Source: Candidatus Nanohalobium sp.
GTDB lineage: Archaea; Nanohalarchaeota; Nanosalinia; Nanosalinales; Nanosalinaceae
Assembly (NCBI GenBank): GCA_042217545.1
Contig: JBDGSM010000032.1
Span: 1 to 38,244 of the forward strand
Direction of reading: 5' to 3'
DNA: 38,244 bases
Within the stretch, counting starts at the first letter, position 1. Each line of letters opens with the position of its first letter. A program made the translations under genes and the position numbers. Positions 1 to 38,013 of the stretch are shown piece after piece. The notes beneath the pieces are model-generated. The model did no database searches, had not been told where the DNA came from, and was given only the letters and a program-made list of their open reading frames with translations.

Positions 1-270
1 GCGGCGATCGCCGGAGGCGTTCTAGTCTACCTGGCGTCAGAGAAAATGGGAGGAAGAATCGGCTCCCGCTTCAAAATCATGACCGCGGCGACCTCATTCC
101 TTCTGCTTTACGGAATCCTGACCAGTGTTCAGTCTGCTGGACTGACCTTATTCAGTTACAGAGACAGTGCATGGAGCGTGGTACACATATTCGTCCATCT
201 CTGTTTCTCGACAGCAGCACTGGTAGGCCTTGCAAGCATCAGGCAAGTCGCAGGAGGTGAGATAGAATGA
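1..270 (+). CDS. Small multi-pass membrane protein, 5' end outside the window
   Basis: Frame 1 is open from base 1 (AAIAGGVLVYLASEKMGG...) to TGA 268-270, with several hydrophobic segments. Confidence 0.6.
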   Translation, partial: AAIAGGVLVYLASEKMGGRIGSRFKIMTAATSFLLLYGILTSVQSAGLTLFSYRDSAWSVVHIFVHLCFSTAALVGLASIRQVAGGEIE

Positions 271-573
271 CTCTTCCGCTGGGACTTTCACAGGTAATGA
301 CAGGCCTGCTGGGCCTTTTCCCTGTTGATAGGTATCGCGGCAGTAGTTATGGCTCTCCTGAACTGGAGAAACTTCCGGGGTTCCACCTACGGTAACTCCT
401 TCCTCGTCTTCGCGATAGGATGGGCTATCGTAGAACTCCACACAGCGAGAGAGCTGATCTTCTACATGTCAGGCGGTCGCGACTTCCCTGCACTGATGGC
501 AGCCTCACTTGCAACAACAGGAGTGGTCGTCATCTCGATCTCCTACTACCTGATCTACAGGGACGCCAAGTAG
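267..573 (+). pseudogene. Small membrane protein with an apparent +1 frameshift near 316-322 (or a sequencing error)
   Basis: SD GGAGGTGA at 253-260 precedes ATG 267, which overlaps the upstream stop (ATGA). It reads MTLPLGLSQVMTGLLGLF, and the hydrophobic frame continues only after removing one base in TTTTCCC (LLIGIAAVVMALLNW..., stop at 573). Confidence 0.55.
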
Positions 574-608
574 GATTTAACTCTCTCCCTTCCTTTTTTC
601 TTTATACA

Positions 609-1658
609 TTGACCCGAAAAATCCTGATAACTGGCTGGAATCACCCCCCGGAGATCGACGGAGGCCTTGACATACACGTCTACCACCTTTTCGAGGAACT
701 CAGGAAAAAACAAGGCCTGGAAGTCAGGTTAGCCTTACCCGAGGAGAACGCTCCGGACAGAGAAGGAATAATCCCGGTCTCAGCAGGCGAAGGTGACATG
801 AAATGGAAGACCCGGCAGATGAGCGCAGAGATCGCCGAAAAAGCAGAAAATTTCGATATAATACATACTCACGACTGGTTCGGAGCGGAAGCAGGCTACA
901 AGGGCTCGAAGTACGGGGAAGCAGTCTGGATCTGTACGATGCATTCCCTGATCTCCTCCAGGACCCGTGGAACATCTGAAGACATCGAAAGGATGGAGAA
1001 AGTCGCCGCGGAAGAACCAGACCAGCTCATCACGGTAAGCGAAGCCCTGAAAGAGGAGGTGGGGGAAAAGTTCGATGCAGAGGCCTCTGTCATCCACAAC
1101 GGTTTCTCAAAGCCCTCGAGCAGAGGCCTAGACGTCAAAGAAGAACTTGGAATAGAGGGGGATATGATCTTCTTTGTCGGAAGGCATGCAGAGCAGAAAG
1201 GGATCGAACATCTTCTCTACGGTTTCAAGAAGTTCCTGGAAAACGGCAACGAGGCCTCTCTTGTCATCGGAGGTGATGGACACATGAGGGAGGCGCTGGA
1301 GAACTTTGCTGAGATCCTGGGCATCGAGGAAAAAGTTTACTTCACAGGTTTCATCCCCTCAGAGGAATTAGGAGATTACTACCGGGAGGCGGAGGCCTTC
1401 GTCTCGCCGTCCATCAGCGAACCGTTCGGTCTGACGATCACGGAGGCTCTTGAGTCTGGCACTAAGGTCTTGGCGACGGAGAGCGGTGTGAACGAGCTGG
1501 TTTCTACGGAAGCGGTGAAGGAGATAAGACCTGAGTCAGATTCAATCGCGGAAGGCCTTGAAGAAGCGCTGGAGAGCTGTGAAGAGGTTGAGTACGAGTC
1601 CCGTAGCTGGGAGGAGATGGCTGAGGAAGTTTTACAGGTCTACAGAAGTTTTAACTGA
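609..1658 (+). CDS. GT4 family glycosyltransferase (glycogen synthase-like, GT-B fold)
   Basis: Motifs GWNHPP..GGL, HTHDW, FVGR..QKG and EPFGL..EA. The likely start is TTG 609; the ORF-track extension from 420 overlaps the upstream gene. Confidence 0.9.
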   Translation: MTRKILITGWNHPPEIDGGLDIHVYHLFEELRKKQGLEVRLALPEENAPDREGIIPVSAGEGDMKWKTRQMSAEIAEKAENFDIIHTHDWFGAEAGYKGSKYGEAVWICTMHSLISSRTRGTSEDIERMEKVAAEEPDQLITVSEALKEEVGEKFDAEASVIHNGFSKPSSRGLDVKEELGIEGDMIFFVGRHAEQKGIEHLLYGFKKFLENGNEASLVIGGDGHMREALENFAEILGIEEKVYFTGFIPSEELGDYYREAEAFVSPSISEPFGLTITEALESGTKVLATESGVNELVSTEAVKEIRPESDSIAEGLEEALESCEEVEYESRSWEEMAEEVLQVYRSFN

Positions 1659-1881
1659 TGATCTCTACGTTTTTAGGCCTTTCGCTGTGTAGTACTGCGT
1701 ATCCGTTCTCTGTATCGGTTAGGAAGGTTGGATCTTCGTGGTAGTAGGCGGTGTCGCTGCCTCCTTCTCCCGGGAGGTAGATGCGTTCTCCTTCCTCTGA
1801 TTGGACGGCTACTGCGATTTCTTCGCTGGTTTCTACCTGGATGAGGTAGCCGTTGCTTTTTTCAGTGATTTTGGTTTCCAC
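1651..1881 (-). CDS. Small conserved hypothetical protein (GERIYLP motif)
   Basis: Acidic 76 aa ORF from GTG 1881 (METKITEK...AVAVQSEEGERIYLPGE). From memory it resembles small proteins found beside haloarchaeal glucan genes; not verified. Confidence 0.65.
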   Translation of the reverse strand: METKITEKSNGYLIQVETSEEIAVAVQSEEGERIYLPGEGGSDTAYYHEDPTFLTDTENGYAVLHSERPKNVEIIS

Positions 1882-1989
1882 AGTTGTAGTTGTTTCACAG
1901 GAGATTTTTAATCTTGGTTCGAGACCTGTGTTTTTCTCCTCTGCGTGGCAACACGCCGTGTTATAAATCAGGCCTCGAATTACGTGTTT

Positions 1990-3207
1990 ATGCTTCCGGT
2001 GACCCTGAGCTTTGAGGTTCATCAGCCTCACCGTCTGCGTATTGACGGGGTTAATGAGGACGCCAGCAGTCTCTACGACAGGTACTTCGACGATGAGATG
2101 AACGAGCATTTCTTCAAGGATGTGGCGGAGAACTGTTACTTCCCGGCGACGGAGAGACTGCTGAGGAATGCGAAGAAGTTTGAAGGGAAAGACAGGGAGT
2201 TCAAGGTCAATTTTTCGATTTCAAGTTCCTGGGTGGATCAGGCGAAAAAGTATCATCCGGAGCTTATAGACATGATAAACAACTTCCCGGACGGAACAGT
2301 GGACTTCATCGGACAGGCCCATTACCATTCTCTAGCAGGCCTTTTCCACGATAAGAAGGAGTTTCGCTGGCAACTGGGAAAACACAGGGATATAATCGAG
2401 GAGGAGTTCGGTAAAAGGCCTCAGGTCATGACCAACACAGAATTAATTTACCACAACGAGATCGGGAAGGTCGCTGCGGAGGAAGGATTCGATGGGATCT
2501 TCACTGAGGGCGTTCCACGTATCCTGGGCTGGCGAAGCCCGAACCATGCGTATACTCAGCCGGATTTCGTGACTGAAAACGGTACCAACATCCTGTTGAG
2601 GAACAGGCAGCTGACCGACGACGTGGGATACCGTTTCTCCGCGGAGTGGTGGGACGAGTACCCGCTTACAGCGGAGAAGTACGCGCTCTGGCTTTCACAC
2701 GCTTCCGGCGATATGCTGAACCTTTTCATGGACTACGAGACGTTCGGAGAGCATCACTGGGAGGGCACCGGCATCCTATGGTTCCTGGAGGATCTTCCTC
2801 AACAGGTACTGAAGCATGACCATCTGAAGTTCGCAACAGTCAGAGAAGTCGCCCAGAACAACGATCCGGTAGGGAAGTTCGACGCCTTCGAGTACAACAC
2901 CGTCTCCTGGGCGGATCAGGAGATGGACGCAAGTGCCTGGCTCGGCAACCCTATGCAGAGGATGCTTTTCGACAAGCTGCAGGAGATCGAGGCAAAAGTG
3001 AAGGAGATGGATGACCCGGAAGTCAAGGAGGTCTGGAGGAAGATGCTGACCTCGGACCACCTCCACCATATCGCGACCAAGACACTGGACGACGGAAGCG
3101 TACACAACTACTTCTCGTACTTCGACCATCCGCACCAGGGATTCGCCGTCATAACAGAACACCTCATGGATTTCCAGCAACAGGTAGAGAAGAGATACAG
3201 GAGCTAG
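1990..3207 (+). CDS. GH57 family alpha-amylase/glucan-active enzyme
   Basis: FEVHQP N-terminal motif, NTELIY nucleophile region, MDYETFGEH acid/base region, SWAD and TSDH motifs; likely start ATG 1990. Confidence 0.92.
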   Translation: MLPVTLSFEVHQPHRLRIDGVNEDASSLYDRYFDDEMNEHFFKDVAENCYFPATERLLRNAKKFEGKDREFKVNFSISSSWVDQAKKYHPELIDMINNFPDGTVDFIGQAHYHSLAGLFHDKKEFRWQLGKHRDIIEEEFGKRPQVMTNTELIYHNEIGKVAAEEGFDGIFTEGVPRILGWRSPNHAYTQPDFVTENGTNILLRNRQLTDDVGYRFSAEWWDEYPLTAEKYALWLSHASGDMLNLFMDYETFGEHHWEGTGILWFLEDLPQQVLKHDHLKFATVREVAQNNDPVGKFDAFEYNTVSWADQEMDASAWLGNPMQRMLFDKLQEIEAKVKEMDDPEVKEVWRKMLTSDHLHHIATKTLDDGSVHNYFSYFDHPHQGFAVITEHLMDFQQQVEKRYRS

Positions 3208-3213
3208 AGGCCT

Positions 3214-4356
3214 CTACCTTCTCCTCTCGACTATCCTCGCATTTATCGCCAGCAGCAGCACCGAGGCCGCAGCGGCGTAGAACGTGTACCTGAAACCTGC
3301 CGCTCTCTCACCCGTTCTGAGGAAGTACAGCAGCAGGCCTACGACCGAGATCTTTCCGAACCCCTGGAAGACTTCTCTGACAGAGAAGAACCCGAGCACG
3401 TTTCTCTGCTCGGCGATATCAGCGATTATGGATACAAGAGGGACTGTATACACTGTGTATGTGAGGCCTGCGACGAAAGAAAGCAGGAAAGCGATAGATC
3501 GGATCTCAAGGCCTGGTACGAAGAGGTAGACCGCTGCGGAGGCTACTGCTCCGGCCAGAACCATGTCCCTGTGCTCGAGCCGGTCGCTGATCTTCCCGGC
3601 GGCTATGGAGAAGAGGCCTGCTCCTATCGCCATCAATGTCTTGGCTCCTCCGACATTCAATGTCCCTCCGATGATGTAGTAGATGAAGAGCGGGAATATG
3701 AAGACGTATGCGGTGGTGGCGAAGCCGTCGAGGAAGTAGAGAGTCCAGAGATCTTTCTCTCCTGTTCCGAGGAGGCCTTCAAGTTCGAACTCAGGTTTCT
3801 CTGCGGTACCGCGGTAGAGGAGTGGAAGCACCGATGCGATCGCTACCACGAGCGCAAGGGTTGCCAGCAGGTTGAAGCCGAGATATGTCATGACAGCGGC
3901 CCCGATCAGAGGTGCGAACGGGCTTACCAGTTTCGGCACGCCCTCCAGCTTCCCGTAGCTCTCTCCTCTATCCTGTTCATCGCTGCCGACCGTGAACTCT
4001 GTGTTCACAGGTATCCAGTGGAAGGCCTTCGCCAGACCTATCAGAACCGCGACTGTCCAGATCAGAGGATATACAACCTTGAAAACCTGGAGCATCACGA
4101 AGACCACGACGTACAGCAGAGATGAGGCCAGTAGACTGCTCTCCAATCCTATCCTTGAGACAAGCCAGCCTGCAGGAACCGCGACCACCGTGAATGCAGC
4201 CACGTCAACAAGGAGGAAAGTGAACACCGCTGAAACAGGAAAGCCCTGCTGGGCGATGAAGACCGGGATGAATATAGATACCAGGCCGAGAGCGAACCCG
4301 TGGAGCGTCTTGTACGCGGTAAGCCTGTTGATCCTGCTTTCGAAGGCCTCTATCAT
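3214..4356 (-). CDS. MFS transporter
   Basis: 380 aa with about 12 hydrophobic segments; motif-A-like GKISDRL and GWLVSRIG. Confidence 0.85.
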   Translation of the reverse strand: MIEAFESRINRLTAYKTLHGFALGLVSIFIPVFIAQQGFPVSAVFTFLLVDVAAFTVVAVPAGWLVSRIGLESSLLASSLLYVVVFVMLQVFKVVYPLIWTVAVLIGLAKAFHWIPVNTEFTVGSDEQDRGESYGKLEGVPKLVSPFAPLIGAAVMTYLGFNLLATLALVVAIASVLPLLYRGTAEKPEFELEGLLGTGEKDLWTLYFLDGFATTAYVFIFPLFIYYIIGGTLNVGGAKTLMAIGAGLFSIAAGKISDRLEHRDMVLAGAVASAAVYLFVPGLEIRSIAFLLSFVAGLTYTVYTVPLVSIIADIAEQRNVLGFFSVREVFQGFGKISVVGLLLYFLRTGERAAGFRYTFYAAAASVLLLAINARIVERRR

Positions 4357-4408
4357 ATCGTTTACTGCGGACAGCCAGAGTAAAAAAGCAGACGGGAGAT
4401 AAGTTTAC

Positions 4409-5350
4409 GTGGACCCTGAAAAAGTGGAGAGCTTCCTCGATAAGAACCGGGACGTTCTCGGCAGAGACTTCGAACTGGAGGAAAGAAAGACAGGAGAATC
4501 CAATCACAACTTCATCATCGAGGCAGAGGAAGAGAGATACGTTCTCAGAGTTTCCAGACAGGTCTCGAGGAGAAGCAGGTTGAGGGAAGAGGCGGAAGCA
4601 CTCGACTTCCTGGAGGAGCAGGAAGTAGAGCATGTTCCAAGGCTTGAATGGTTCGGCGAGACAGAGATCGGAGCAGTTCTGATAGAGACTTTTGTAGGAG
4701 AAGAAAATATCCAAAAAGGAGATTTTGATGAGGAAGAACTTAGAAGATCTGCCGAACTCCTGGCAGATATACACAAGATCTCCACAGAAGAATACAACGA
4801 CTTCTTCGGAACGCAGAAAGAACAGAAAGCCTCTCTACGTAAGATATACGCCAGAGAGTACAGAAAGTGGTCTGAAAGGCCCTACAACGAGTACCTGGAT
4901 GCAGCGGAAGAACCTGATGAAAGGTTAAAGGAGGCCTACCGGAGGCAGGAAAAGCTTTTCAAGACTGTTCCAGACATTGAAGTTCCGCAGAGACCTGTTC
5001 ACGGCGATCTCGGCTTCAACGTCCGGAAAAGCGGAGAGAAGGTATTCTTCGTGGACTGGGAGTACTTCACCACAGGTTTCCCCGGACACGACGTCGTCTA
5101 CTTCTTCGAACACGAAGGCCTGGATGAAGAAGAGCGCGAAGTTTTCCTTGAGGAGTACCGCAGGCACCGGGAACTGGACAAGGCCTTTGAGGAGAACCGT
5201 GAACGGTACAGGAAGTTCCTGGCGTTTAACGATATGATCTGGGCAGCTAAAAGGCTTGAAACAGGCGAGGGCGACCAGGAGAAGATGCAGGAGATATTTG
5301 ATGAGAAGATGGAGTTGCTGGAGAAACTTCATGAAGGCCTTTCAGGATAA
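4409..5350 (+). CDS. APH/choline-kinase family phosphotransferase
   Basis: GESNHNF loop, YVLR, Brenner-like HGDLGFN and FVDWE motifs. Confidence 0.85.
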   Translation: MDPEKVESFLDKNRDVLGRDFELEERKTGESNHNFIIEAEEERYVLRVSRQVSRRSRLREEAEALDFLEEQEVEHVPRLEWFGETEIGAVLIETFVGEENIQKGDFDEEELRRSAELLADIHKISTEEYNDFFGTQKEQKASLRKIYAREYRKWSERPYNEYLDAAEEPDERLKEAYRRQEKLFKTVPDIEVPQRPVHGDLGFNVRKSGEKVFFVDWEYFTTGFPGHDVVYFFEHEGLDEEEREVFLEEYRRHRELDKAFEENRERYRKFLAFNDMIWAAKRLETGEGDQEKMQEIFDEKMELLEKLHEGLSG

Positions 5351-5375
5351 AAACGGGGATGACCAATTTTCTGTT

Positions 5376-6080
5376 ATGAGTGAGAAAAACTTTGTCGAGG
5401 TCGAGAACGGCGAGAAAGTCGCTGCAGTACATCACAAAACGGATTCGGATAGATGGATATTTTTCTGTCATGGCTATGGAAGCGGCAAGGAAGGAAGTTA
5501 CGAGGAACGGGCGAAGAGGGCTGTAAGAGAAGGTTTCAATGCGGTCAGGTTTGACTTCAGAGGTAACGGAGAGTCTGATGGAGATTTCATCGATCAGAGC
5601 TTGAGCTCCCGTATAAATGATTTAAAGGCCTGTATCGACTTTTTTGAGCCAGAGAGAATCTTTCTCTTCGGTATGAGTTTCGGAGGTAAAGTTGCGTCCC
5701 ATACAGCGAACCAACTGGATGTCGAGGCCTTGATCCTGAAGTCTCCGGTTACCTACAACTCTATAATGGATAAGTTTCGGCAGGTTGTGGAGGAGAAAGG
5801 AAGTTATACTCACTTCGCGGACAAGACGATCGATGAGCGATTTTTCGAGGATCTAGATACGTACAGCTTTGATGACGTCGCTACGGGTCTTGATGCTCCG
5901 GTCGCGATCTTTCACGGAGGCAGCGATACGACCGTCCATTTCGAGAACTCTGCTGAGGCAGTTAAGGCCTTTGAGACCGATGTCCTGCTTTACAGGTTGG
6001 AAGGCGAGAAGCATTCGATGAGCGATGAGGGAGAAGAGAAGATGAGGGATATGATGTTTGCCTGGCTTGACCAGATCTAG
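5376..6080 (+). CDS. Alpha/beta hydrolase
   Basis: CHGYG, RFDFRGNGES, nucleophile GMSFGG, HGGSD and terminal His (EKH); start ATG 5376. Confidence 0.88.
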   Translation: MSEKNFVEVENGEKVAAVHHKTDSDRWIFFCHGYGSGKEGSYEERAKRAVREGFNAVRFDFRGNGESDGDFIDQSLSSRINDLKACIDFFEPERIFLFGMSFGGKVASHTANQLDVEALILKSPVTYNSIMDKFRQVVEEKGSYTHFADKTIDERFFEDLDTYSFDDVATGLDAPVAIFHGGSDTTVHFENSAEAVKAFETDVLLYRLEGEKHSMSDEGEEKMRDMMFAWLDQI

Positions 6081-6454
6081 ACTGGGACTGCGCCCTGGTT
6101 CCTGTCGTCGTCGAGTAGGCCCAGGCTGATGTCGCCGTACTCGTCCTGGAACTCTCCGACTTTCTCTCTGGCACCGTCGTAGATATCCTCTGCTTTATCC
6201 TTGACCGGTGTGTAGTCTGGGTTCTCTGCTTTCTCCGCGGCGTACTCTCCGACAGTCATCCCTCCGTAGGCTGCGGCCGTGCCAGCTGCTACCTCTGGAC
6301 CAGCTACACCTGCGGCCATTCCCAGGGCTGCGTCGAAACCGTATTTCTCGGTCAGCTCCCTGATACGGCCTTTGTCCTGGTCTCCTTCCAGAGTTTGGTT
6401 TGCGTCGTCCATTCCAAACCCGCCGTCAAGAACACCCAGCATTGTTTTTGTCAC
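6077..6454 (-). CDS. Hypothetical acidic protein with a Gly/Ala-rich hydrophobic core
   Basis: 125 aa ORF with acidic composition like its neighbours; TTTAAA-type box about 30 bp upstream. Confidence 0.6.
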   Translation of the reverse strand: MTKTMLGVLDGGFGMDDANQTLEGDQDKGRIRELTEKYGFDAALGMAAGVAGPEVAAGTAAAYGGMTVGEYAAEKAENPDYTPVKDKAEDIYDGAREKVGEFQDEYGDISLGLLDDDRNQGAVPV

Positions 6455-6528
6455 CCTGTAATAACAACATTATCATTGCAGGTATTTAAACTTTTCGCTG
6501 TATCAGGTCGTGAGTTGAAGAGAATTTT

Positions 6529-7680
6529 TCAGGCCTTGTCTTCCAGGGCCTGATTGTAGATGCCTGTAGTCCATGCGCTTATCTGTTCCCAGCGGAAGTT
6601 GTCTTCCACGCGGTCTCGGGCGTTGTCTCCCATCCAGTCCGACCATCTTGGGTCTTCAAGGCCTCTCGTGACCTGGTCCGTGATAGATCCTGGATCTGCC
6701 GGGTATGTGTGGAGGCCTGTGTATTCATGTACGATTGTGTCTTTCATTCCTCCTGTGTAGCTGCCTACCGTCATTGTTTCCGATGCAGCTGCTTCCAGGG
6801 GTACGATTCCGAATGGTTCGTAGACGCTGGGTGCGACCGTCATTGTGGCTTCTTTCATCAGTGATTTGAGTTCGTTGTCGCTGACGTAGCCAGGGAAATG
6901 TACTTTGTCGCCGACCTTGTTTTTGGCTATGGATTTGTAGTGTTCTGTAGCTCCGCTGCCGCACATGACGAACTTTGCTTCCGGTTGCTGGTCCAGGATA
7001 TGTGGCATGGCCTCTATAAGGTGTCCTGGGCCTTTCTGTGGGTACATTCTGCCGACGAAGAGTACGATGTTCTCCCAGTCCAGTGCGTATTTGTCCCTCT
7101 GAAGATCTTTGCTGTGGCTGTCAAATCTTTCCAGATCGACGCCGTTAGGTATGTAGTTTATCTTTTCCTCCGGGACTTCGTAGGTATGTTTTACTTCCTC
7201 CGAGAACTCTCTGCCAACGGTGATGACTTCTTCCGCTTCATATGTTCCGTACCATTCGAGGTCATGAATCGTTTTCTGGTACTCGGAGTCTATCCCATCT
7301 CTTCCCTGCTGCGTTGAGTGGACCGTAAAGACCATCGGGAGGTCCAGAGTCTTTTTGATCCCTGTCGCGCCGGGAACGGCCATCCAGTCATGTGCATGTA
7401 CGAGATCGAACTTGTTCTGCTTGTGGAGTTCTATTGCTTTTTTCTCCATCTCGTGGCCGAGATGCATGGCCCAGGAAAGAGTGTTCGCCGCTGAATTGGA
7501 CGCCGGAACACGGTGGATCTGTACTCCATCACGTACTTCAGAGCTACGCTCCTCTCCATACGTTATTACGACAGGTTCGTGTCCCTGTGAGGCCATAGTC
7601 GTAGCTAGGTCTTCGCAGTGCGCCGCTATACCTCCCGCCTTGTAAGGCGGGTACTCCCACGTTATGAAAAGAGGCCTCAT
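6529..7680 (-). CDS. GT4 family glycosyltransferase (glycogen synthase-like)
   Basis: WEYPP..GG, HAHDW, IPNGVD, FVGR..QKG and YEPFGIVPLEA motifs. Confidence 0.92.
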   Translation of the reverse strand: MRPLFITWEYPPYKAGGIAAHCEDLATTMASQGHEPVVITYGEERSSEVRDGVQIHRVPASNSAANTLSWAMHLGHEMEKKAIELHKQNKFDLVHAHDWMAVPGATGIKKTLDLPMVFTVHSTQQGRDGIDSEYQKTIHDLEWYGTYEAEEVITVGREFSEEVKHTYEVPEEKINYIPNGVDLERFDSHSKDLQRDKYALDWENIVLFVGRMYPQKGPGHLIEAMPHILDQQPEAKFVMCGSGATEHYKSIAKNKVGDKVHFPGYVSDNELKSLMKEATMTVAPSVYEPFGIVPLEAAASETMTVGSYTGGMKDTIVHEYTGLHTYPADPGSITDQVTRGLEDPRWSDWMGDNARDRVEDNFRWEQISAWTTGIYNQALEDKA

Positions 7681-7692
7681 CTTTAGAATTGA

Positions 7693-8295
7693 TCACGTCT
7701 CAACTTTTTTCTCTTGTTTAACAAGTTCTGCGTATTTCTTTAAAACTCTTTCAGGCCATCGATCGCTGTAAGGGTCGATCACGTCGACTTTCTCCCCCGG
7801 AGCATCAAGGTCGAAAAGCACAGAGTTCTTTGTATCCTCTTTTGTAGTAAGTATCTGATCTGCCTCGTAAGCTCCCTGCCACTCAAGCTCGGAGATCATC
7901 TCCGCATGCTCTCCTTCAAAGCCGCGCTCGTTCTCAGTGGAGTGCAGAGTAAGCACAAGAGGCCTTTCCAGGTTTTTCGACAGCGCTACACCGCCAGGAA
8001 CCGTAGTCCAGTCGTTAGCATGGATAACATCCACTTCACCGCCGACATTCTGCATCACCTGTTCCTTCAACTCGTTGTTCATCATCATCGACCAGTTGTA
8101 GATGTTGTCACCGTCAAAATTCAATGGAGCTCTGAGAACATCTACCCCTTCATCAATACTGTAGTAAGAACCATCATCGAACGAAACAATAGTTACATCA
8201 TGCCCGCTGTACGTGAGATGCTCTGCAATGCTCTTGATATATTCCGATATTGCCTCGCCGTCACTGAACTGCTTCGAAAGCAAAACAACGTTCAT
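7693..8295 (-). CDS. GT4 N-terminal-domain-only protein, paralogue of the adjacent GT4
   Basis: HANDWTTVPG...LTLHST...ISELEWQG aligns by eye to 6529..7680; no C-terminal VGR/EPFG domain. Confidence 0.8.
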   Translation of the reverse strand: MNVVLLSKQFSDGEAISEYIKSIAEHLTYSGHDVTIVSFDDGSYYSIDEGVDVLRAPLNFDGDNIYNWSMMMNNELKEQVMQNVGGEVDVIHANDWTTVPGGVALSKNLERPLVLTLHSTENERGFEGEHAEMISELEWQGAYEADQILTTKEDTKNSVLFDLDAPGEKVDVIDPYSDRWPERVLKKYAELVKQEKKVET

Positions 8296-9456
8296 CTACT
8301 TGAACCTCTCCTCGAAACCAATCTCCTTGCTTTTCTCGACATCAGGCTGGTTGAAGGGATTCACACCACGGAACCAGGCAGAGTAAACTGCCAGGTACTG
8401 GAGAAACGCCACTAACTCGCCAGCAGCACTGTACGAAAGCTCCTGCAGCGTTAAAGTAACGTTAGGCCTTTCTTCATCATCTACCGCATGCTTCACTCCA
8501 ACGTACTCGGATTTCAGGGCCTCAGAGTACGAGTTCTGCTCAAGGCCTTCAAGTTTTTCCCCCCGTATATCTATATCCTTTAGAGGGTCAGGAACCTCTA
8601 TCTCTGCGTGTTCATGGGTTTCCGTCCTGAAGAACATCGGAATTATGTTTTTCTCTCCGCCGAACATTCTCTGGTTGGTATGGTGCTGGTACTCAGGCCC
8701 TAGATCGCCGTAGACCGTCATGCCCTCGCCTTCTTTACAGACTGTCTCATGCATCAGCTGTACGAACAGTGGGTAGAATCCAAACAAGCGAGTGGAGTAG
8801 AAAGGCGCCAATATATCCGTGTAGCCGTCTTTCTCTGCCTCGTAGAGTTCAAGTGCCAGTTCCTTCGCGGCATTATCCTTTCCAGGCCTCAGCTTTTCAT
8901 ACATCTCCTCAGCACCTCTGCGGATCTCGTCTATATCCATGCCTGCGAGAGCAGCGGGTACAAGACCTGTCTCTGTAGATCCGGAGAATCTTCCTCCGAC
9001 ATTGGGATGTTCCACCCATTCAAGGCCTTCTTTTTCAACTATATTTCTCAGAGCGCCATCATTATCGGAAGTAACTGCAAGAACCGGGTAATCCCTATTC
9101 ATAAAGAAGAGCAGAGATTCTATGACTCCTACTGTCTCTCCCGACTTGCTTATAGGTACTACGAGAGTCTTCTCCTCGTCTAGCTCTCTTGAAAGCCTGT
9201 TAAGATAGTCTGGATCCATTGTAGTTACCAGACGCACGTCTTTATCGACTTCTGGCAGGAAAGCGTATAGATATGCCCTGAAACTGGTGATGGATCCTCC
9301 GTTACCGATCACGACCAGGTTCTCGTATTCCCTGTCCGAGGCCTTCTCCTTTATCTCGTCTATATCAGGTTTGTACTGTGCAAAGTTCGGGGTTTCCTTG
9401 TCCGAGATCTCCCCGTCGGAGATCTCTGTGTTGCTTGTTTCCACTTTGAAGCTCAT
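8296..9456 (-). CDS. pgi: Glucose-6-phosphate isomerase (PGI superfamily)
   Basis: IGNGGS, ISKSGET, VGGRFS, QLMHET.CK, QHH and NPFNQPDVEKSK motifs. Confidence 0.88.
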   Translation of the reverse strand: MSFKVETSNTEISDGEISDKETPNFAQYKPDIDEIKEKASDREYENLVVIGNGGSITSFRAYLYAFLPEVDKDVRLVTTMDPDYLNRLSRELDEEKTLVVPISKSGETVGVIESLLFFMNRDYPVLAVTSDNDGALRNIVEKEGLEWVEHPNVGGRFSGSTETGLVPAALAGMDIDEIRRGAEEMYEKLRPGKDNAAKELALELYEAEKDGYTDILAPFYSTRLFGFYPLFVQLMHETVCKEGEGMTVYGDLGPEYQHHTNQRMFGGEKNIIPMFFRTETHEHAEIEVPDPLKDIDIRGEKLEGLEQNSYSEALKSEYVGVKHAVDDEERPNVTLTLQELSYSAAGELVAFLQYLAVYSAWFRGVNPFNQPDVEKSKEIGFEERFK

Positions 9457-11204
9457 TTTGATCTCTCCAAGGCCTTTTCATGGGCCTCCCTGTAGTTTTC
9501 ACCCAGTTTCTCCCAGGAGGTCATCTGTGCAAGCTTCCTGGCGTTGTGCTTTCTCTCGGTGATTTCAGTTTTCGAGTAAGATACTATGTCGTCTATCATT
9601 TTTGCAAGGTCTTTTGCTGCTTCGCTGTCAGGCCTGTTTCTTCTCTCCAGGACCTTGATACCTTTTCTCTCGTAGTCGTTGGTGTTTTCCTTCAGGAACT
9701 GGCCGAATCCTGCGAGATCCGTTGTTACTGACATGGCTCCGTTCGCTGCTGTCTCGACAGGCGTGTATCCCCATGGTTCATAGTATGAGGGGAAGATTCC
9801 TGCGCTGGAAGCTACTACAGCGTCGTTGTAATCCATTGAAAGAAGTTTGTCTCCGACTGAGAGGTACGTGGGGTAGAAAACAATTTTTACGCGGTCTTCC
9901 TTCCTGTTTCTCAGGCCTTTGTCCCACAGAGCTTCCATTATTTCGTCGTTGTCGTAGTTAAGGTCGAATGCCGAGAGCGGCGGTGTCTTCTCCTTCTTGG
10001 TGTGGAAGTTGGCCTGGAGGGATTCAAGCTTCCTGGTTCCCTTTATCACGTCCTCCAGTCCTGCAGAGGGTTCTTTGCCGGATGTTATCGAGTTAAGAAG
10101 GTTTTCACGGAGTTCTGGCATCGCAGAGTCTATATAGTCCTCCAGTTCTTCGTAGAGAGATACGTTCTCCAGCACTTCAAGCTTCTCGCCTTTAACGTCA
10201 CTGGGAACAAATATGAATACGAAGAAGTCGTCGCCCTCCATATCGTTGACCTGGGATAACGCATCTATCATCAGATCTATGCCCTTGTTGTGGAACTCGT
10301 ACCTTCCGGAGATGTAGAGTACACGTGGATCGTCGTCCAGATCAACGTCGTAGTAAGGTTTGAAATAGGCCTGTAAGAAGCTCTTGAACTCCTGTTTCTC
10401 CTTTCTGTGGTTGTAGGAAAGCTCCTCAAGGCTTGGATACTCCTCAACGTTGAAGCCGTTCGGAAGTATCTTGTCAGGCTTCACGTCCAGGACCGCTTCC
10501 GCCTCCTCTCCGGTAGTCTTACTTACTGTGGTGAAGACATCCGCAGTCTCCGCCGCAGTCTTCTCAAGCTGGTGCTTTGCCTTTACACCGTGCTCCTCGG
10601 CCATTTTATCGTTCACGTTGCCGTTCTTGACAGCTTCACGGAGATTGAAGTCCGAGTCCGAAAGCGTCCTCCCGAGAACTGTAGCATGAGTCGTGAAAAC
10701 CTTCGGAGAATCAAAATTGAACATGGCAGGGCCTGAAAGCCATTCGTGAAGATGCACCACAGTATCGTTCTCAAGCTTTTCCTCAAGCCTATTTATTAGA
10801 AGGCCTACCGCATAACTCCATCTGACCGGATCATCGAACTCGCTGCCAGTATTCATGGAGTCTATATCGTATTTCTCCCACATCTCGGTCTTTATATCAT
10901 CGACGTCACGCTGCATGCCAGAAGCGTCGACCAGTATACATTTCGGAGAGCCTGATACCTCCCAGACCCCGTAGTAGCACTCGATACCTTTCTTTCTCAA
11001 GGCCTCGAACAGATCTTCGTATGGATGGTCCTGGCGGGGCGCAAAATCCTTCCTTGCCGCCTCCTCGTTGTAAGGCCCAATCGTGAGGTAGTGATCGCCG
11101 TAGAAATCGCTCATTTTGGACGACTTGGACTTGAGAACCTGATAGATTCCTCCGACTTTGTTTGCAACCTCGAAAGAAACTTCTATTAGGTTATCGTGAG
11201 CCAT
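9453..11204 (-). CDS. GT3 family glycogen synthase
   Basis: EVSFEVANKVGGIY, HEW, FTTHATVLGR, GRYEFHNKG and FPSYYEPWGYTPVE motifs. Confidence 0.93.
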   Translation of the reverse strand: MAHDNLIEVSFEVANKVGGIYQVLKSKSSKMSDFYGDHYLTIGPYNEEAARKDFAPRQDHPYEDLFEALRKKGIECYYGVWEVSGSPKCILVDASGMQRDVDDIKTEMWEKYDIDSMNTGSEFDDPVRWSYAVGLLINRLEEKLENDTVVHLHEWLSGPAMFNFDSPKVFTTHATVLGRTLSDSDFNLREAVKNGNVNDKMAEEHGVKAKHQLEKTAAETADVFTTVSKTTGEEAEAVLDVKPDKILPNGFNVEEYPSLEELSYNHRKEKQEFKSFLQAYFKPYYDVDLDDDPRVLYISGRYEFHNKGIDLMIDALSQVNDMEGDDFFVFIFVPSDVKGEKLEVLENVSLYEELEDYIDSAMPELRENLLNSITSGKEPSAGLEDVIKGTRKLESLQANFHTKKEKTPPLSAFDLNYDNDEIMEALWDKGLRNRKEDRVKIVFYPTYLSVGDKLLSMDYNDAVVASSAGIFPSYYEPWGYTPVETAANGAMSVTTDLAGFGQFLKENTNDYERKGIKVLERRNRPDSEAAKDLAKMIDDIVSYSKTEITERKHNARKLAQMTSWEKLGENYREAHEKALERSK

Positions 11205-11307
11205 AATTTTTCAATCGTTTTCCTCGTATAAAAACATCGTCAGGAAACGATTGCTACCCCGCGGTTAATATACGGGTTTTATACCCTTCCAGCGCTTGTA
11301 GAGAATC

Positions 11308-13089: not shown

Positions 13090-13096
13090 TGATAAG

Positions 13097-19864: not shown

Positions 19865-19936
19865 TGAATCGAGTGAGGTGCTTCAGATTAAAATAAGGTG
19901 GGAGCCGAAGGTCGAGGCCTTCTGACTCCAACTAAA

Positions 19937-20162: not shown

Positions 20163-20247
20163 GCCGATTCATCCCGCTACCTATCAGAGAAAGGAAGGGG
20201 ACTTCTCGGCAACTAAATTAAAATAAGTTGGATTCGATAAGAGGCCT

Positions 20248-23025
20248 ATGACCGGAGAATTTGCGGCCAGACTCACAGATATCGAGGAGAAGTGGCAGGA
20301 AAAATGGGAAGAAGCAGAAGTTCACAGGACTGAGAAGACTGACGCAGAGAAGTACTATGTCCTGGAGATGTTTCCATATCCCTCCGGCAACCTGCACATG
20401 GGACACGTCCGCAACTTCTCACTGGGCGACGCACCGGCCCGCATGAAACGGATGCAGGGCTACGACGTTATGCATCCGATGGGCTGGGACGCATTCGGAC
20501 TGCCTGCGGAGAACGCAGCGATCGACAGAGATGTAGACCCGGAGGAATGGACAAGGGACTGCATCGACAACATGAGAGGCCAGCTCAAACGTTTAGGCTT
20601 CTCATACGACTGGGAACGGGAGATCGCGACCTGTGACCCGGAATACTACAAGTGGAACCAGTGGATCTTCCAGCAGATGCTGGACGAAGGCCTTGCCTAC
20701 GAGGATGAGTCCAAGGTTAACTGGTGTCCGAGCTGTGAAACAGTCCTTGCTGACGAACAGGTAGAGGACGGACTCTGCTGGAGATGTGACAGTGTTGTAG
20801 AACAGAAGGAGATGGAACAATGGTTCCTCAAGATCACAGAATATGCTGAAGAGCTTCTCGGCGATCTTGAACAGCTTGAAGGCTGGCCTGACAAGGTTCG
20901 GGACATGCAGGAGAACTGGATCGGGAAGAGCCACGGCGCAAAGATTAAATTCCCATTGAGAGGTGAAGACAGAGAATTGGAGGTCTTCACGACAAGGCCT
21001 GACACGATATTCGGCGCAACATTCATGGCGCTCGCTCCGGAGCATGAGTTAACCGAAGAGATAGCTGAAGAGAACCAAGAGGTTGCAGAGTACCGTGAAG
21101 AGGCGATGAAAAAAGATACTGAGGAAAGAGAGGAGAAGTCCAAGGCAGGAGTTTTCACAGGAAGGTACGCCGAGAACCCGTTCACGGGTGAAGAGATCCC
21201 TATCTATGTCGCCGAGTTCGTCCTGACGGATTACGGTACTGGAGCGATCATGGCGGTACCGGCACACGACCAGAGGGACTGGGAGTTCGCACAGGAACAC
21301 GGCGTAGACATCAGGAAAGTCGTCGAGCCTGAAGGAGACCACAGCTTCCAGGAGGAAGCGTATGAGGGCGACGGCGAACACGTTAACTCAGAGTTCCTGG
21401 ACGGCCTGGACAAGGAAGACGGTATAGAAAAGATAATTGAAGAGCTTGAGGATAGAGGCCTTGGCACGCACGACGTGAACTACAAGCTGCGTGACTGGCT
21501 GATCTCCAGGCAGCGTTACTGGGGTACACCGATCCCGATCATCCACTGTGACGAGTGCGGGACGGTTCCCGTGCCTGAAGAGGATCTTCCTGTCGAACTA
21601 CCGGATGACGTGGAGTTCACGGAGACAGGCAACCCTATCGAGACATCGGAGAGCTGGGCGGAGGTCAAATGCCCTGGATGTGGAGGAGAAGCACGGAGAG
21701 AAACTGACACGATGGATACATTCATCGGAAGCTCCTGGTACTTCCTCAGATATATCTCGCCAGAATTAGATGACGCTCCGTTTGACGTGGAGGACGCGAA
21801 CTACTGGATGAACGTAGATCAGTACATCGGAGGGATAGAACACGCAGTCATGCATCTGCTGTACGCAAGATTCTTCACAAAGTTCCTACGTGATGAGGAG
21901 ATGCTCGACGAAGACGAACCGTTCGAAAGACTTCTCACACTCGGAATGGTCAATCATCCCGCGTACAACTGCCCTGAACACGGCTGGCTCTTCCCGGATG
22001 AAGTGGAGGGCGATAACATCTGCGAGAAATGTGGTAGAGAGGTCGAAGTCGAGACCAGGAAGATGTCCAAGTCCAAGCACAACGTCGTGGATCCTACTGA
22101 ACTTGTAAAGGAACATGGAGCCGATACCGCAAGAGTTTTCATCCTTAGAGCTTCAGGCCCTACAAACGAGCTGGACTGGAGCGAGGATGGAGTAGCAGCG
22201 GCGGAGGAAATGCTTGAGAGAGTTGAAAGGATAGTTGAAGAGAACATGGAGGCCTTAACAGATGAAAGGCCTTCTCTGGAGAACGCCGAGCTGTTCGACA
22301 GGATAATGGCTTCGAGAATCCAGAGAGCGATAGAGAAAGTTACGGATGATACCGAGAACTATGATTTCAACCTGGCGATCGACGAGATCGACAGACTGTT
22401 GAGCAAGCTCTACTGGTACGAACAGCAGGGAGGAAAAGATGAAGTTCTCTCACACGGCATCAAGACCTTGTTGAAGTTGCTCAGTCCTTACGCACCGCAC
22501 ATCACCGAGGAACTCTGGCACAGGATCGGTAACGAGAACTTTATGATTGAAGAGGAATGGCCTGAACCTGAAGAAGGCCTTATTGACGAGGACGCTGAGG
22601 AGATCGATGATTACTTCTCCCGCGTCTCCTCAGACATCAGGGAGATCATCGATATGATCGAAGACAGTCCTGAGAAGATTAAAGTTATCAAGGCCTCGGA
22701 TTGGAAGTATTCTGCCGGTGAGAAGATCCTTGACGTGATCGAGGATACTAAAGATGTCGGTGAGGTCATGGATCAGGTGCTTGACGATGACCTACAGCAG
22801 AAGGCGCAGCAGATCAATGAGGAAGTTGTAAAGGCCGTGGAGAATCCTGGAAACTACCGGAAGAACTTCACAGGCCTTGAGCTGGAGGAGGAAGCGCTTG
22901 AACTGAACCAGGAAAGGTTTAAGGAAGAGTTCGGAGTTGAAGTCGTTGTCGAAAAAGAGGATGAAAGCGGCGAGGACAAGGCCTCACGTGCTCAGCCCGG
23001 AAGGCCTGCGATCGTGGCTGAATAG
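20248..23025 (+). CDS. leuS: Leucine--tRNA ligase
   Basis: FPYPSGNLHMGH, GWDAFGLPAENAA, FTTRPDT and YGTGAIMAVPAHD editing motifs, and KMSKS. Confidence 0.98.
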   Translation: MTGEFAARLTDIEEKWQEKWEEAEVHRTEKTDAEKYYVLEMFPYPSGNLHMGHVRNFSLGDAPARMKRMQGYDVMHPMGWDAFGLPAENAAIDRDVDPEEWTRDCIDNMRGQLKRLGFSYDWEREIATCDPEYYKWNQWIFQQMLDEGLAYEDESKVNWCPSCETVLADEQVEDGLCWRCDSVVEQKEMEQWFLKITEYAEELLGDLEQLEGWPDKVRDMQENWIGKSHGAKIKFPLRGEDRELEVFTTRPDTIFGATFMALAPEHELTEEIAEENQEVAEYREEAMKKDTEEREEKSKAGVFTGRYAENPFTGEEIPIYVAEFVLTDYGTGAIMAVPAHDQRDWEFAQEHGVDIRKVVEPEGDHSFQEEAYEGDGEHVNSEFLDGLDKEDGIEKIIEELEDRGLGTHDVNYKLRDWLISRQRYWGTPIPIIHCDECGTVPVPEEDLPVELPDDVEFTETGNPIETSESWAEVKCPGCGGEARRETDTMDTFIGSSWYFLRYISPELDDAPFDVEDANYWMNVDQYIGGIEHAVMHLLYARFFTKFLRDEEMLDEDEPFERLLTLGMVNHPAYNCPEHGWLFPDEVEGDNICEKCGREVEVETRKMSKSKHNVVDPTELVKEHGADTARVFILRASGPTNELDWSEDGVAAAEEMLERVERIVEENMEALTDERPSLENAELFDRIMASRIQRAIEKVTDDTENYDFNLAIDEIDRLLSKLYWYEQQGGKDEVLSHGIKTLLKLLSPYAPHITEELWHRIGNENFMIEEEWPEPEEGLIDEDAEEIDDYFSRVSSDIREIIDMIEDSPEKIKVIKASDWKYSAGEKILDVIEDTKDVGEVMDQVLDDDLQQKAQQINEEVVKAVENPGNYRKNFTGLELEEEALELNQERFKEEFGVEVVVEKEDESGEDKASRAQPGRPAIVAE

Positions 23026-25978: not shown

Positions 25979-25979
25979 G

Positions 25980-34615: not shown

Positions 34616-34652
34616 GAAGAAGGTTTAAACCGCGAGCTAGAAAAGTATTTCT

Positions 34653-34865
34653 ATGAGCCAGGAACCAGAGAGCTACGAGGACATCCTTGAAGAGCTTGAG
34701 GACGAAGTCGAGCATGCCGAGAAAGATTTCGAGGAGGCGAAGGATGATGACGCCACAGGTTCTCTGAAGGAGAAGCAGGAACGCGCTGAAGACCTGATGA
34801 ATGAGATACACAGCCAGCTGGACTTCCTGGAGAACCATCTCGATGAGATCGAAGGGAAAGATTAA
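34653..34865 (+). CDS. Small acidic coiled-coil protein
   Basis: 70 aa helical acidic ORF with TTTAAA about 25 bp upstream. Confidence 0.65.
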   Translation: MSQEPESYEDILEELEDEVEHAEKDFEEAKDDDATGSLKEKQERAEDLMNEIHSQLDFLENHLDEIEGKD

Positions 34866-34901
34866 TAATTTTTGATGATCTAAACAAAAACTGTGATAAC
34901 A

Positions 34902-35327: not shown

Positions 35328-35330
35328 AAA

Positions 35331-36332: not shown

Positions 36333-36500
36333 AGGCCTTTCTTCCTCGGTGAAATGTATAACTGTTTATCCGACAGTTGCATTCAACGACAATTATTTAA
36401 CTTCTGCATGGAAATTTTCAGATAAGATGAGAGGAGTGGGGGAAAAGAGCCTGCGCTTTGAAAACATGAGCGTTATGCGAGGGTGCCTCCGCTGAGTTCT

Positions 36501-37468
36501 ATGCCAGGTCCTGATTACCTGCCTGGCGAGTTCAATATACCTGACAACTACAACGTACTGCACGTCTCCGAAATACACGCTTTCGAAGAACACGATCCGG
36601 ATATAAGGGAAGACTACGTCCGTGGAGTCGGAAAACAGGTCAACGACTACGTCGAAACATATGATGTGGACGAGATACACGTCATGGGAGACACAGGGAC
36701 CTTCGACGACGTCTACAACTTCCTGGACGAGCTGGAAGCAGGTCCAGAGGTAAAGCTGGTCGCAGGAGACGAGGACAAGAAGACGCAGATCCTGACTACC
36801 CGGATGAGGAAGCTGACGAGTTCACAGGCTTCATGAAACAGATAAACTCTCCGCAGCCCTTCGATGTCGACGTGGACTACGAGATATTCGACGAAGGCTT
36901 CGAGACAGAGATCAGAGGAAACACGGTACAGGCCGCCCATCATCCGCACAGGAAGAAGAGAGACGAAGGCCTCAAGTATCCGGACACACGGGACGAAAGG
37001 ATCCTGGACGATCTGTTCTCGGTGAAACGGTACATCAACGAGCAGTCGACAAGGAGGACGCCTCCAAGCCTTTCCGGAACAGATATCGCCATCTACGACC
37101 ACGTGCACATGCCTTACCCGAGAACTGTCGGAGACAAGATCCTTTTAGGCCTTGGAGCCCGGCGCTTCAACTACCAGTCCAGGCCTGACAACATGCCGGA
37201 GAGAAGCATCCATCTCACCAGTTTCGAGGACGACAAAGCCCACTCACTGCATTTCGACGCAGAACACAACGAGATCTTCGAGCACGAGGTCTTCGATCAG
37301 ACCGGTGAAGAAGTGGAGATGTTCTACGTCGAGACGCCCCGGGGCAACACCCACAACTCCGGCTACCTCCCAATCCAGAGCCGTTTCAAGCGGGACCAGA
37401 TAGTGGATGAAGCGTGGGAAGACAACAGAGACATGCCAGATCCGTGGAGTCAGAGAGAAGCGGCGTAG
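36501..37468 (+). pseudogene. Calcineurin-like metallophosphoesterase-related protein, split or frameshifted near 36780
   Basis: LHVSEIH, MGD and AGDED lie in frame A; the other frame reads DADPDYPDEEADEFTGFMKQ... then AHH and DHVHMP up to the stop at 37468. Confidence 0.6.
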
Positions 37469-37500
37469 AAATTTAACTGTCGAAGGCCTCAAACTTCTCT

Positions 37501-38013
37501 ATGAAGTACTTCGAACAGACACCTGAAGAACTGGAGGAATTCCTCGGATTCATGGAGGAAGACCTTGAAAACGTGAAAAGAGTGAAGGAAACAGTGGAGG
37601 AGGAAGGCCTTGAAGCCGACTTCATAGTCCACGCAAAGAGCGAGACCGTGGAGGAGTCCGCTGAGAACACGGGAGTCGACGAGGAGGAAATCGTGAAGAC
37701 ATTAGTCTTCGTCGGAGAAAGGCCTGTCGCGGTTCTGTGCCCTGGAGACACTTCTGTATCCGAAAGCAAACTGGAGGACTTAACGAGTTCTGAAGTACGG
37801 ATGGCGAGGCCTGACGAGGTAGAAGAAGCTACAGGATACTACGTGGGCGGAGTCTCGCCTTTCGACCTCGAGATCCCAGTCTACATGGAGGAGGAGATCT
37901 TGGAGAACGAGGAAGTAAAGCCGGCGGCCGGCTCACGCGTAGTAGGCGTAACGGTCGATCCTGAGGCCTTGAAGGAAGTGTCTGGCGCGGAAGTCGTAGA
38001 CGTGAGCAGGTAA
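37501..38013 (+). CDS. YbaK/EbsC family aminoacyl-tRNA deacylase
   Basis: IVKTLVF, TGYYVGGVSPF and AAG motifs. Confidence 0.9.
   Translation: MKYFEQTPEELEEFLGFMEEDLENVKRVKETVEEEGLEADFIVHAKSETVEESAENTGVDEEEIVKTLVFVGERPVAVLCPGDTSVSESKLEDLTSSEVRMARPDEVEEATGYYVGGVSPFDLEIPVYMEEEILENEEVKPAAGSRVVGVTVDPEALKEVSGAEVVDVSR

Follow-up and report, generated by a model that had tools for sequence, protein, structure and literature searches.

Highly iterated palindromes (HIPs) have been a cyanobacterial puzzle for three decades. In the accessible text of the articles that describe it, HIP1 (GCGATCGC) is a short, hyper-abundant and dispersed palindrome that occurs in all reading frames and in spacers, arises by substitution, is conserved in position and is phylogenetically patchy (PMC4390886, PMC5861425, PMC13756078). 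Its distribution is described there as quasi-periodic at tens of kb (Xu et al. 2018, PMC5861425), and a role in DNA-uptake recognition has been proposed for it, with no significant correlation with methyltransferases (PMC13756078, in the portions available). Alternate cyanobacterial HIPs include CAGGCCTG, which holds the hexamer AGGCCT as its core; according to the same portions of PMC13756078, which cites Elhai 2015 and Xu et al. 2018 for them, these are lineage-specific replacement palindromes. Here we analysed AGGCCT in a 38,244-nt stretch of nanohaloarchaeal DNA (called here the window: bases 1-38244 of contig C26 of G000, an assembly of Candidatus Nanohalobium sp.) and across the genome and phylum to which it belongs. 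AGGCCT is very probably a true HIP of one nanohaloarchaeal family, maintained by a lineage-specific and directional force that acts at the DNA level through point substitutions, prevails over codon choice and partly over the choice of amino acid, and is switchable between congeners.

The archaeal palindrome differs from HIP1 in several respects. It occurs in a DPANN symbiont, is 6 bp long and not 8, is denser (3.6-4 sites per kb), and contains the probable restriction-modification (R-M) target of sister lineages, and no cognate methyltransferase was found for it. Compared with the alternate HIPs, which are moderately enriched octamers in a few cyanobacteria (PMC13756078, accessible text), its flanks are nearly free. 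Our literature search, which did not extend to supplements and subscription journals, found no description of the phenomenon in archaea, and the word 'archaea' occurs 0 times in PMC4390886, PMC5861425 and PMC13756078.

The window contains exactly 139 AGGCCT sites (the first at 225, the last at 37964-37969) with a mean spacing of about 275 bp, so that the hand count of the initial annotation, about 139 sites or one per 275 bp against some 9 expected, was accurate; in 100 dinucleotide-preserving shuffles the mean was 10.4 and the maximum 22, and 139 was never reached. When compared with the 43 open reading frame (ORF) calls, 122 sites were found inside ORFs, 14 wholly outside and 3 on boundaries, corresponding to 3.50 sites per kb inside and 4.08 outside. 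The sites within ORFs were distributed over codon frames 0, 1 and 2 as 17, 48 and 57, and 200 synonymous-codon shuffles of the window genes yielded 23.8 +/- 4.0 sites (maximum 36) against the 122 observed. GGCC occurs 239 times in the window, only 31 of them with neither a 5' A nor a 3' T (BGGCCV). The gene content is housekeeping (a glycogen/glycolysis cluster, two MinD/ParA, LeuRS, AlaRS, FtsZ, Spt5 and ribosomal L11, L1 and L10), and since this is ordinary DNA the signal does not depend on any special element. The array and examples of each frame and of spacer sites are as follows.

225..37969, unstranded: dispersed AGGCCT array of 139 sites (site count and ORF overlap)
20248-23025, + strand: leucyl-tRNA synthetase (LeuRS) gene (ORF call, Pfam LeuRS match)
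20995..21000, + strand: frame-0 example in the LeuRS gene, AGG CCT = Arg-Pro (offset 747 from the start codon, divisible by 3)
22250..22255, + strand: frame-1 example in the LeuRS gene, xAG GCC Txx (offset 2002, remainder 1)
20688..20693, + strand: frame-2 example in the LeuRS gene, xxA GGC CTx = x-Gly-Leu (offset 440, remainder 2)
19915..19920, unstranded: spacer example between the Pfam-supported genes 19286-19864 (- strand) and 20248-23025 (+ strand)
20242..20247, unstranded: spacer site immediately upstream of the LeuRS start codon

The same excess was observed over the whole G000 assembly (1,032,751 bp in 82 contigs, 92% complete, 49% G+C), in which AGGCCT is present 3,699 times and ranks first among all 4,096 hexamers. 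The next commonest hexamers, AAGGCC and GGCCTT, are overlaps of AGGCCT itself and reach half its count, and the second-ranked palindromic hexamer has an observed/expected ratio (O/E) of 2.33. All 82 contigs carry between 1.3 and 5.9 sites per kb against about 0.24 expected. The density is 3.47 per kb in coding and 3.95 per kb in non-coding DNA, with O/E values against their own composition of 14.3 and 19.6, respectively, and the coding sites fall in frames 0, 1 and 2 in numbers of 584, 1,059 and 1,472. The dispersed, HIP1-like pattern that the initial annotation had described in the window, independent of frame and strand and extending to spacers, is thus genome-wide. Immediately outside the hexamer, A occupies 41% and C 21% of the -1 positions, and T 42% and G 20% of the +6 positions; these flanks carry little information and the unit is therefore the hexamer and no longer repeat.

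Could this excess be a compositional artefact of codon usage, of dipeptide usage or of the sub-words GGCC and AGGC/GCCT? The O/E of AGGCCT decreased from 15.2 (order 0) to 13.0, 5.1 and 2.4 with Markov models of order 1, 2 and 3, and to merely 1.11 with the maximal-order Markov-4 model, as an artefact would predict; codon usage also favours AGG, CCT, GGC and GCC. The Markov-4 value is uninformative, however, as it is the hexamer that generates the pentamers: of 9,205 occurrences of AGGCC, 7,398 (80%) continue with T and so sit within AGGCCT. When the protein sequence and the codon usage of each gene were kept fixed, 614 +/- 20 coding sites were expected against 3,115 observed, an O/E of 5.1 (codon usage alone predicts 304), and a single dipeptide bias is insufficient, as had been argued from the window. 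Spacers are equally rich in AGGCCT, and relatives with similar composition show normal counts. The sub-word GGCC does not carry the enrichment either, since 58% of it is embedded in AGGCCT and the other NGGCCN words are depleted: the O/E of BGGCCV is 0.41 in G000 and 0.41-0.44 in G000 and the likewise enriched G003, whereas the half-site words AGGCCV and BGGCCT are undepleted, at about 1.25 in G000 and 1.25-2.07 across the two genomes. Together with the window synonymous shuffles, these results reject the artefact, which we consider almost certainly wrong, and neither of the outcomes that the initial annotation had named as refuting its reading was obtained. They also reveal that GGCC, the core of the hexamer, is subject to two pressures of opposite sign in AGGCCT-rich genomes, and show that the force favours the exact hexamer about 15- to 20-fold over any other word, everywhere on the chromosome.

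How far this force reaches into proteins was evident from the peptide contexts able to encode a site synonymously, namely Arg-Pro, Lys/Glu/Gln-Ala-x with a T-initial codon and x-Gly-Leu after an A-ending codon (the contexts R-P, E/K-A-x and E/K-G-L given in the initial annotation were correct). In G000, 3,082 of 4,645 such contexts (66%) carry the site, and AGGCCT encodes Arg-Pro in 584 of 826 instances compared to the 13% expected from codon usage (odds ratio 16). The peptides themselves are affected. Across 371 orthologues common to G000, G003 and the non-enriched G051, three genomes at equal distances from one another (62-63% amino-acid identity), Arg-Pro was counted 257 and 268 times in the enriched G000 and G003 against 136 times in G051, while the control dipeptide Pro-Arg occurs 150, 157 and 137 times, respectively. 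The other two context classes are 1.5-1.9 times commoner in G000 and G003 than in G051. Moreover, 62 lineage-specific sites in G000 and 107 in G003 lie where the peptide changed solely in the site-bearing genome, the other two sharing theirs. A DNA-level force can therefore strongly reshape proteins, with about two-thirds of permissive positions occupied and Arg-Pro about doubled.

The sites are also kept in place. When 28 genes of G000 were compared with those of its congener G001 (identical at 77% of nucleotides and at 54% of third positions), 66 of 92 sites (72%) were found in the same place, compared to 24% for all hexamers, and between G000 and G003, which belongs to a different genus (65% identity), 461 of 1,085 sites (42%) are in common against a 12% background; where the peptide is identical, 371 of 439 are kept. 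This positional conservation can reflect inheritance or parallel gain at permissive peptides. By contrast, the non-enriched G004 has AGGCCT at 1 of 69 corresponding positions and G051 at 2.4% of the positions common to G000 and G003, despite the same peptide at 51% of them. The G051 words at these shared positions are nearer to AGGCCT (mean distance 1.50 versus 1.77; 9 of 2,000 permutations as extreme), which fits loss in G051 and parallel gain at near-cognate words equally. Among the 40 variant places listed from public assembled contigs (sets X1 and X2, possibly the source sample, and X3, restricted to relatives at about 83% identity), none lies within AGGCCT, about 0.9 being expected.

The sites sit in ungapped codon-alignment columns in which the orthologous words of G004 and G051 are 1-5 mismatches away, and AGGCCT thus arises by nucleotide substitution and not by insertion. 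The substitutions that separate the G004 words from the sites start from all bases and not mainly from T to C, and the one-mismatch neighbour words of AGGCCT are undepleted in G000 (O/E 0.76-1.87), including the deamination neighbours AGGTCT/AGACCT (1.87) and AGGCTT/AAGCCT (1.41); for these two reasons the pattern misfits repair of deaminated methyl-cytosine. In E. coli, Dcm/Vsr very-short-patch repair on CCWGG has a small effect, needs a C5 methylase and Vsr, and depletes T-containing neighbour words. That bias resembles the present one in that a repair bias raises the frequency of a methylase target word, but in G000 neither PF00145 nor PF03852 was found and neighbour words are present at the frequencies just given. 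AGGCCT shares with the HIPs its top rank among over-represented palindromes, its dispersal over all frames and non-coding DNA, its origin by substitution and a positional conservation above background. The frames, the spacers, the conservation, the peptide changes and the genome-wide excess all agree with the earlier proposal that a process acting on DNA creates or keeps AGGCCT.

The palindrome was then counted in 70 genomes of the phylum, a genome being called enriched when AGGCCT reached at least 5 times the count of a reversed-word control. Thirteen of the 70 are enriched, all in one family and in four genera: g1 (3 of 3), g26 (5 of 5), g29 (3 of 3) and g2 (2 of 6). The remaining 57 contain 32-892 sites, and several are clearly depleted relative to the control (G017, 73 versus 491; G018, 55 versus 362; G051, 97 versus 344). 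Named loci are equally patchy: the locus titled Candidatus Nanosalina sp. VS9-1 carries 4.04 sites per kb versus 0.22 for Candidatus Nanosalina sp. J07AB43, and two loci titled Candidatus Nanohalobium sp. have 3.83 and 0.47. Intermediate densities were seen in G040 (g26; 762 sites per 0.8 Mb) and in locus L181 (1.0 per kb), which may be lineages gaining or losing the palindrome. No other iterated palindrome was detected in the 17 non-enriched relatives sampled, the O/E of the top palindromic hexamer being at most 4.5 in 20-kb samples and at most 6.2 in three samples of 3-5 kb.

A tree of AlaRS was built from the 30 best-matching loci together with G063; it covers 31 genomes out of 70 and leaves out the other 39. 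Enriched genomes lie in one half of it, interleaved with non-enriched genera, and a fully supported clade of 15 genomes has none, so that the tree forces at least 3 changes of the trait. An approximately unbiased test rejected a single enriched clade (log-likelihood difference 148, p = 7e-5), for one gene and with a hypothesis set after seeing the tree. The split within genus g2 (2 of 6) is firmer evidence for repeated gain or loss, because the tree represents one gene, was seen before testing and does not group G058 with its congeners. It should also be noted that L186 (record JBLGBK010000002.1, titled 'MAG: Colwellia polaris'), a 122-kb contig, encodes an AlaRS 68% identical to the present nanohaloarchaeal one; its title looks like a taxonomic mislabel.

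The spacing of AGGCCT is more even than random at short range, as judged from gap simulations in G000 and G003. Gaps below 40 bp represent 6.9% of the total in G000 versus 13.4 +/- 0.5% simulated, and 9.0% versus 14.3% in G003, values as low being obtained in 0 of 300 simulations in each case. Similarly, the occupancy of potential sites increases with the distance to the next potential one, from 57% at 6-20 bp to 80% beyond 320 bp. The spacing thus contains a modest signal of diminishing returns. In the complete genome of G003, the density falls to a third or less of its usual value in nine islands. The rRNA operon (genes found by Rfam) forms one of them, with 2 sites in the 23S and 1 in the 16S gene against 11.7 and 5.8 expected, and another spans 18 kb with a type I methylase gene at 1.3 sites per kb; DNA that is constrained or probably acquired is therefore poor in AGGCCT. 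As for G000, its lowest-density contigs (C57, C77, C46, C76 and C3; 1.3-2.4 per kb versus a mean of 3.6) may be recently acquired DNA, and a C57 product has weak matches to Ig-like and chitobiase-C domains.

The initial annotation had pointed out that HIP1 has been linked to cognate DNA methyltransferases, and no such link emerged for AGGCCT. C5 methylase (PF00145) and Vsr (PF03852) were not found in G000, at its 92% completeness, and the sole PF01555/PF02384 match in this genome is a THUMP/UPF0020-type RNA methylase. Across the phylum, PF00145 is present in 17 of 70 genomes, that is in 1 of 13 enriched genomes versus 16 of 57 others, and the lone enriched case, in G043, lies on a 2.7-kb contig and is 27% identical to a HaeIII-like enzyme of G051. 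PF01555, tested in 11 genomes, was convincing in G018 and G056 only; the single-contig enriched genomes G001 and G003 had no match and G057 a weak one, below the cut-off. PF02384 identified a type I HsdM in G003, with weak matches alone in G000 and G001, and PF02086 was absent from the five enriched genomes tested (5/5). Single-contig G001 and G057 have no convincing PF00145, PF01555 or PF02086 enzyme. An 829-aa type IIG-like methylase of G001 was discarded as a common cause, since G000 lacks a counterpart of it and the non-enriched G051 encodes a 55% orthologue. The motif (D/N/S)PP(Y/F/W/H) was found 9 times in 1,150 G000 ORFs; five of these and the match on C19, scanned with Pfam, are RNA, protein or other enzymes or belong to no family, and none is a DNA methylase. 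These results show that no tested DNA methylase family is common to the enriched genomes and that the palindrome is independent of recognisable methylases; judged from sequence, the co-occurrence with a methyltransferase described for HIPs (Elhai 2015) appears to be missing.

The core of the palindrome is under a different pressure in sister lineages, two of which, G051 and G017, encode an NgoPII-family endonuclease (PF09521, E about 1e-73) adjacent to a 337-aa methylase that matches M.HaeIII over its full length (E = 1.8e-95).

L201:1456-3375 (G051): NgoPII-family endonuclease and M.HaeIII-like C5 methylase cassette
L007:1456-3355 (G017): NgoPII-family endonuclease and M.HaeIII-like C5 methylase cassette

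Both enzymes presumably recognise GGCC. The cassette is present in these 2 of the 70 genomes. G051 avoids GGCC in every context (O/E 0.33, compared to 1.05 for CCGG), and in samples of about 26 kb the O/E of GGCC is 0.19 in G017 and 0.04 in G018, most other relatives lying at 0.6-1.1. The depletion of restriction sites that is normally expected, and that the initial annotation had set against the excess of AGGCCT, thus holds in G051 and G017. The core of the iterated palindrome is probably a restriction target in the same family, and the comparison with restriction-site avoidance under an NgoPII/HaeIII-type system is twofold: the same GGCC core is under pressure, but its AGGCCT-embedded form is enriched 15-fold in G000 and avoidance is seen instead in G051, G017 and G018.

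These data bear directly on an origin linked to methylation, as advanced for HIP1 (Elhai 2015). In this view AGGCCT would be modified by a methylase that went unrecognised or comes from the host, and its number would be ratcheted up by strand-directed repair or by selection for the methylated copies. HIP1 and the alternate cyanobacterial HIPs are associated with cognate methylases (PMC4390886, accessible text), AGGCCT contains the GGCC that the sisters' cassette probably targets, and the avoidance of BGGCCV in enriched genomes (O/E 0.41 and 0.44) looks as if the AGGCCT context alone were safe. Methylase activity may even reach a nanohaloarchaeon from its partner, low-level cross-methylation between nanohaloarchaeon and host through cytoplasmic bridges having been described (PMC11001535); the portions available of this article and of PMC10266531 give GDGcHC as the sole methylation for strain SVXNc, with no mention of AGGCCT or GGCC. 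We nevertheless regard such an origin as unlikely, given the distribution of PF00145, the single-contig enriched genomes devoid of convincing enzymes, the type IIG-like enzyme that also has an orthologue outside the enriched group, the failure to find Vsr in G000, the undepleted deamination neighbours and site-making substitutions that start from every base. A response to circulating GGCC-cutting restriction enzymes, in which GGCC would be tolerated only as AGGCCT through a protective factor so that protected sites accumulate, draws on the same cassette, on the GGCC avoidance in G051, G017 and G018 and on the depletion of BGGCCV. Yet tolerance explains neither a 15-fold excess nor amino-acid changes that create sites, the half-sites are undepleted and no protective factor is known; we hold this explanation to be highly improbable.

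AGGCCT could instead be bound by a protein of the nucleoid or of chromosome architecture that is specific to the lineage, each site being under weak selection. The palindrome suits a dimeric binder, the density is similar in genes and spacers, the even spacing and the lower occupancy of crowded positions are what exclusion by a footprint predicts, and a role in chromosome structure has been argued for HIP1 (Xu et al. 2018, PMC5861425, accessible text). However, about 4,000 weak sites would need selection in a small symbiont population, relatives do well without them, and no candidate tracks the trait, two small candidates of DNA-binding type having been tested or seen and one of them, the SWIM protein p233, having failed. 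This architectural role is in our opinion rather unlikely too.

The search for a gene that reads or drives the palindrome relied on a differential screen of the complete genomes of G003 (enriched) and G051 (non-enriched) against 1,150 G000 ORF proteins, which yielded 62 G000 proteins with a counterpart in G003 and none in G051. Fifty-five of them were scanned with Pfam (of the other seven, 3 contain in-frame stops and 4 lie in a stretch that overlaps a further candidate), 25 also with NCBIfam and PADLOC. An Mre11-like nuclease with its Rad50-like neighbour was rejected, since strong orthologues are confined to G000, G001, G003, G060 and the non-enriched G048 and G014, and are absent from enriched g26 and g29. 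The pair consists of a Rad50/SbcC-like ATPase (655 aa) adjoining an Mre11/SbcD-like nuclease (343 aa), at C12:128-3116 in G000 and C1:703727-706712 in G003; within genus g2 it is present in both enriched species and absent from the four others. A Toprim protein (44 of 70 genomes), the small methyltransferases p819 and p290 (54 and 46 of 70) and a HerA/CedD-like ATPase (27 of 70) are not linked to the trait. In G000 this last ATPase, which matches the DNA-translocating ATPase CedD in part, follows a giant 8,305-aa ORF (C9:32587-59378), and the 27 genomes have the HerA-like module fused to or beside giant ORFs of up to 9,433 aa. The SWIM protein p233 was present in 4 of 5 genomes tested, including two non-enriched ones, and absent from G056. 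The phosphodiesterase p407 was found in 1 of 5 genomes tested, the non-enriched G061. It is a type I phosphodiesterase/nucleotide pyrophosphatase family protein (G000 C23:8267-9082, G003 C1:1029815-1030597, G061 C40:2551-3324) that is absent from G051, G056, G043, G060 and G063, and its 87-93% identity, compared to a protein average of about 62%, suggests recent horizontal transfer.

Universal proteins were screened for divergence linked to the trait. An HhH-GPD glycosylase outlier proved to be an artefact of paralogue pairing, its orthologue being found in 65 of the 70 genomes, with 73% identity in G051, and the top outlier was a tRNA synthetase paralogue. A 1,021-aa class-I aminoacyl-tRNA synthetase (G003 C1:655184-658252, with an orthologue in G000) shows 76% identity between these two genomes and 42% to the G051 counterpart, versus about 62% genome-wide, probably because one lineage underwent a xenologous replacement. 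The cause of the trait might also be an altered specificity of some universal protein or lie in an external factor.

The reading that we tentatively prefer, with a probability of about 0.4, is that AGGCCT serves as a self-DNA recognition signal read by machinery for DNA exchange or recombinational repair. The hexamer would mark 'own-kind' DNA for this DNA-processing machine, working like bacterial uptake sequences or Chi; DNA richer in AGGCCT would be preferentially taken up, kept or used as repair template, and biased gene conversion would spread the sites, each further one bringing less in a stretch that is already marked. The DNA uptake sequences of Neisseria (DUS) and the uptake signal sequences of Pasteurellaceae (USS) are 9-12 bp long, are not palindromic and work with known competence machinery. 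AGGCCT resembles them as an over-represented word at about 1 per kb or denser that lies in genes with amino-acid effects, is evenly spaced and varies between lineages. We favour recognition because of the uniform per-site advantage, the even spacing with its diminishing returns, the site-poor and probably acquired DNA, and the newest view of HIP1 (PMC13756078, in its accessible text). The near-saturated occupancy, the reshaped proteins, the sites kept in place and the on/off contrast among close relatives are counted as support for it as well.

Several points weigh against the recognition signal. No reader protein or uptake machinery was found among the searches made: none of the 7 differential candidates (of 62) that were checked phyletically tracks the trait, and ComEC, the one competence family sought (no search being made for DprA or pilus receptors), is present in 0 of 70 genomes. 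Known uptake sequences and Chi are longer than AGGCCT and not palindromic, and a 6-mer discriminates poorly against foreign DNA. Unlike DUS and USS, which operate in established systems, the signal would depend on a DNA uptake or recombination that is itself presumed in these archaea. Finally, adjacent potential sites are weakly anti-correlated and near independence (probability of both being occupied 0.299 versus 0.323 expected, at 6-20 bp), so that a rule by which either one will do is not clear, and protein constraints might also produce the lower occupancy of crowded positions.

The present analysis adds to the description of iterated palindromes a phylum-wide count, a negative correlation with methylases, the GGCC R-M cassette in depleted sisters, the context-specific avoidance of GGCC, the effect of crowding and a failed candidate screen. 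The kind of signal known from cyanobacteria is now seen in another domain of life, in nanohaloarchaeal genomes of about 1 Mb, where it is denser and has no detectable cognate methylase. Because the on/off contrast lies within one genus and complete genomes are available on both sides, its cause is directly testable, and AGGCCT can serve as a marker when these genomes are binned or searched for DNA that they acquired recently. In its boldest form, which we think unlikely, the palindrome would be a switchable, methyltransferase-independent 'watermark' of DPANN genomes: one factor would read AGGCCT, drive it into every permissive position and tell own-kind from host DNA in exchange or repair. If so, thousands of sites would have been rewritten and certain dipeptides doubled within the divergence of congeneric species, and sister lineages with GGCC-cutting restriction systems would be genetically isolated from the carriers.

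Within the window itself, positions 420-16318 are densely packed with genes that make and degrade glycogen or belong to upper glycolysis (two GT4 glycosyltransferases, GH57, glycogen synthase, a debranching-type glucosidase, phosphoglucomutase, an ADP-dependent kinase, TIM and a PGI-like protein).

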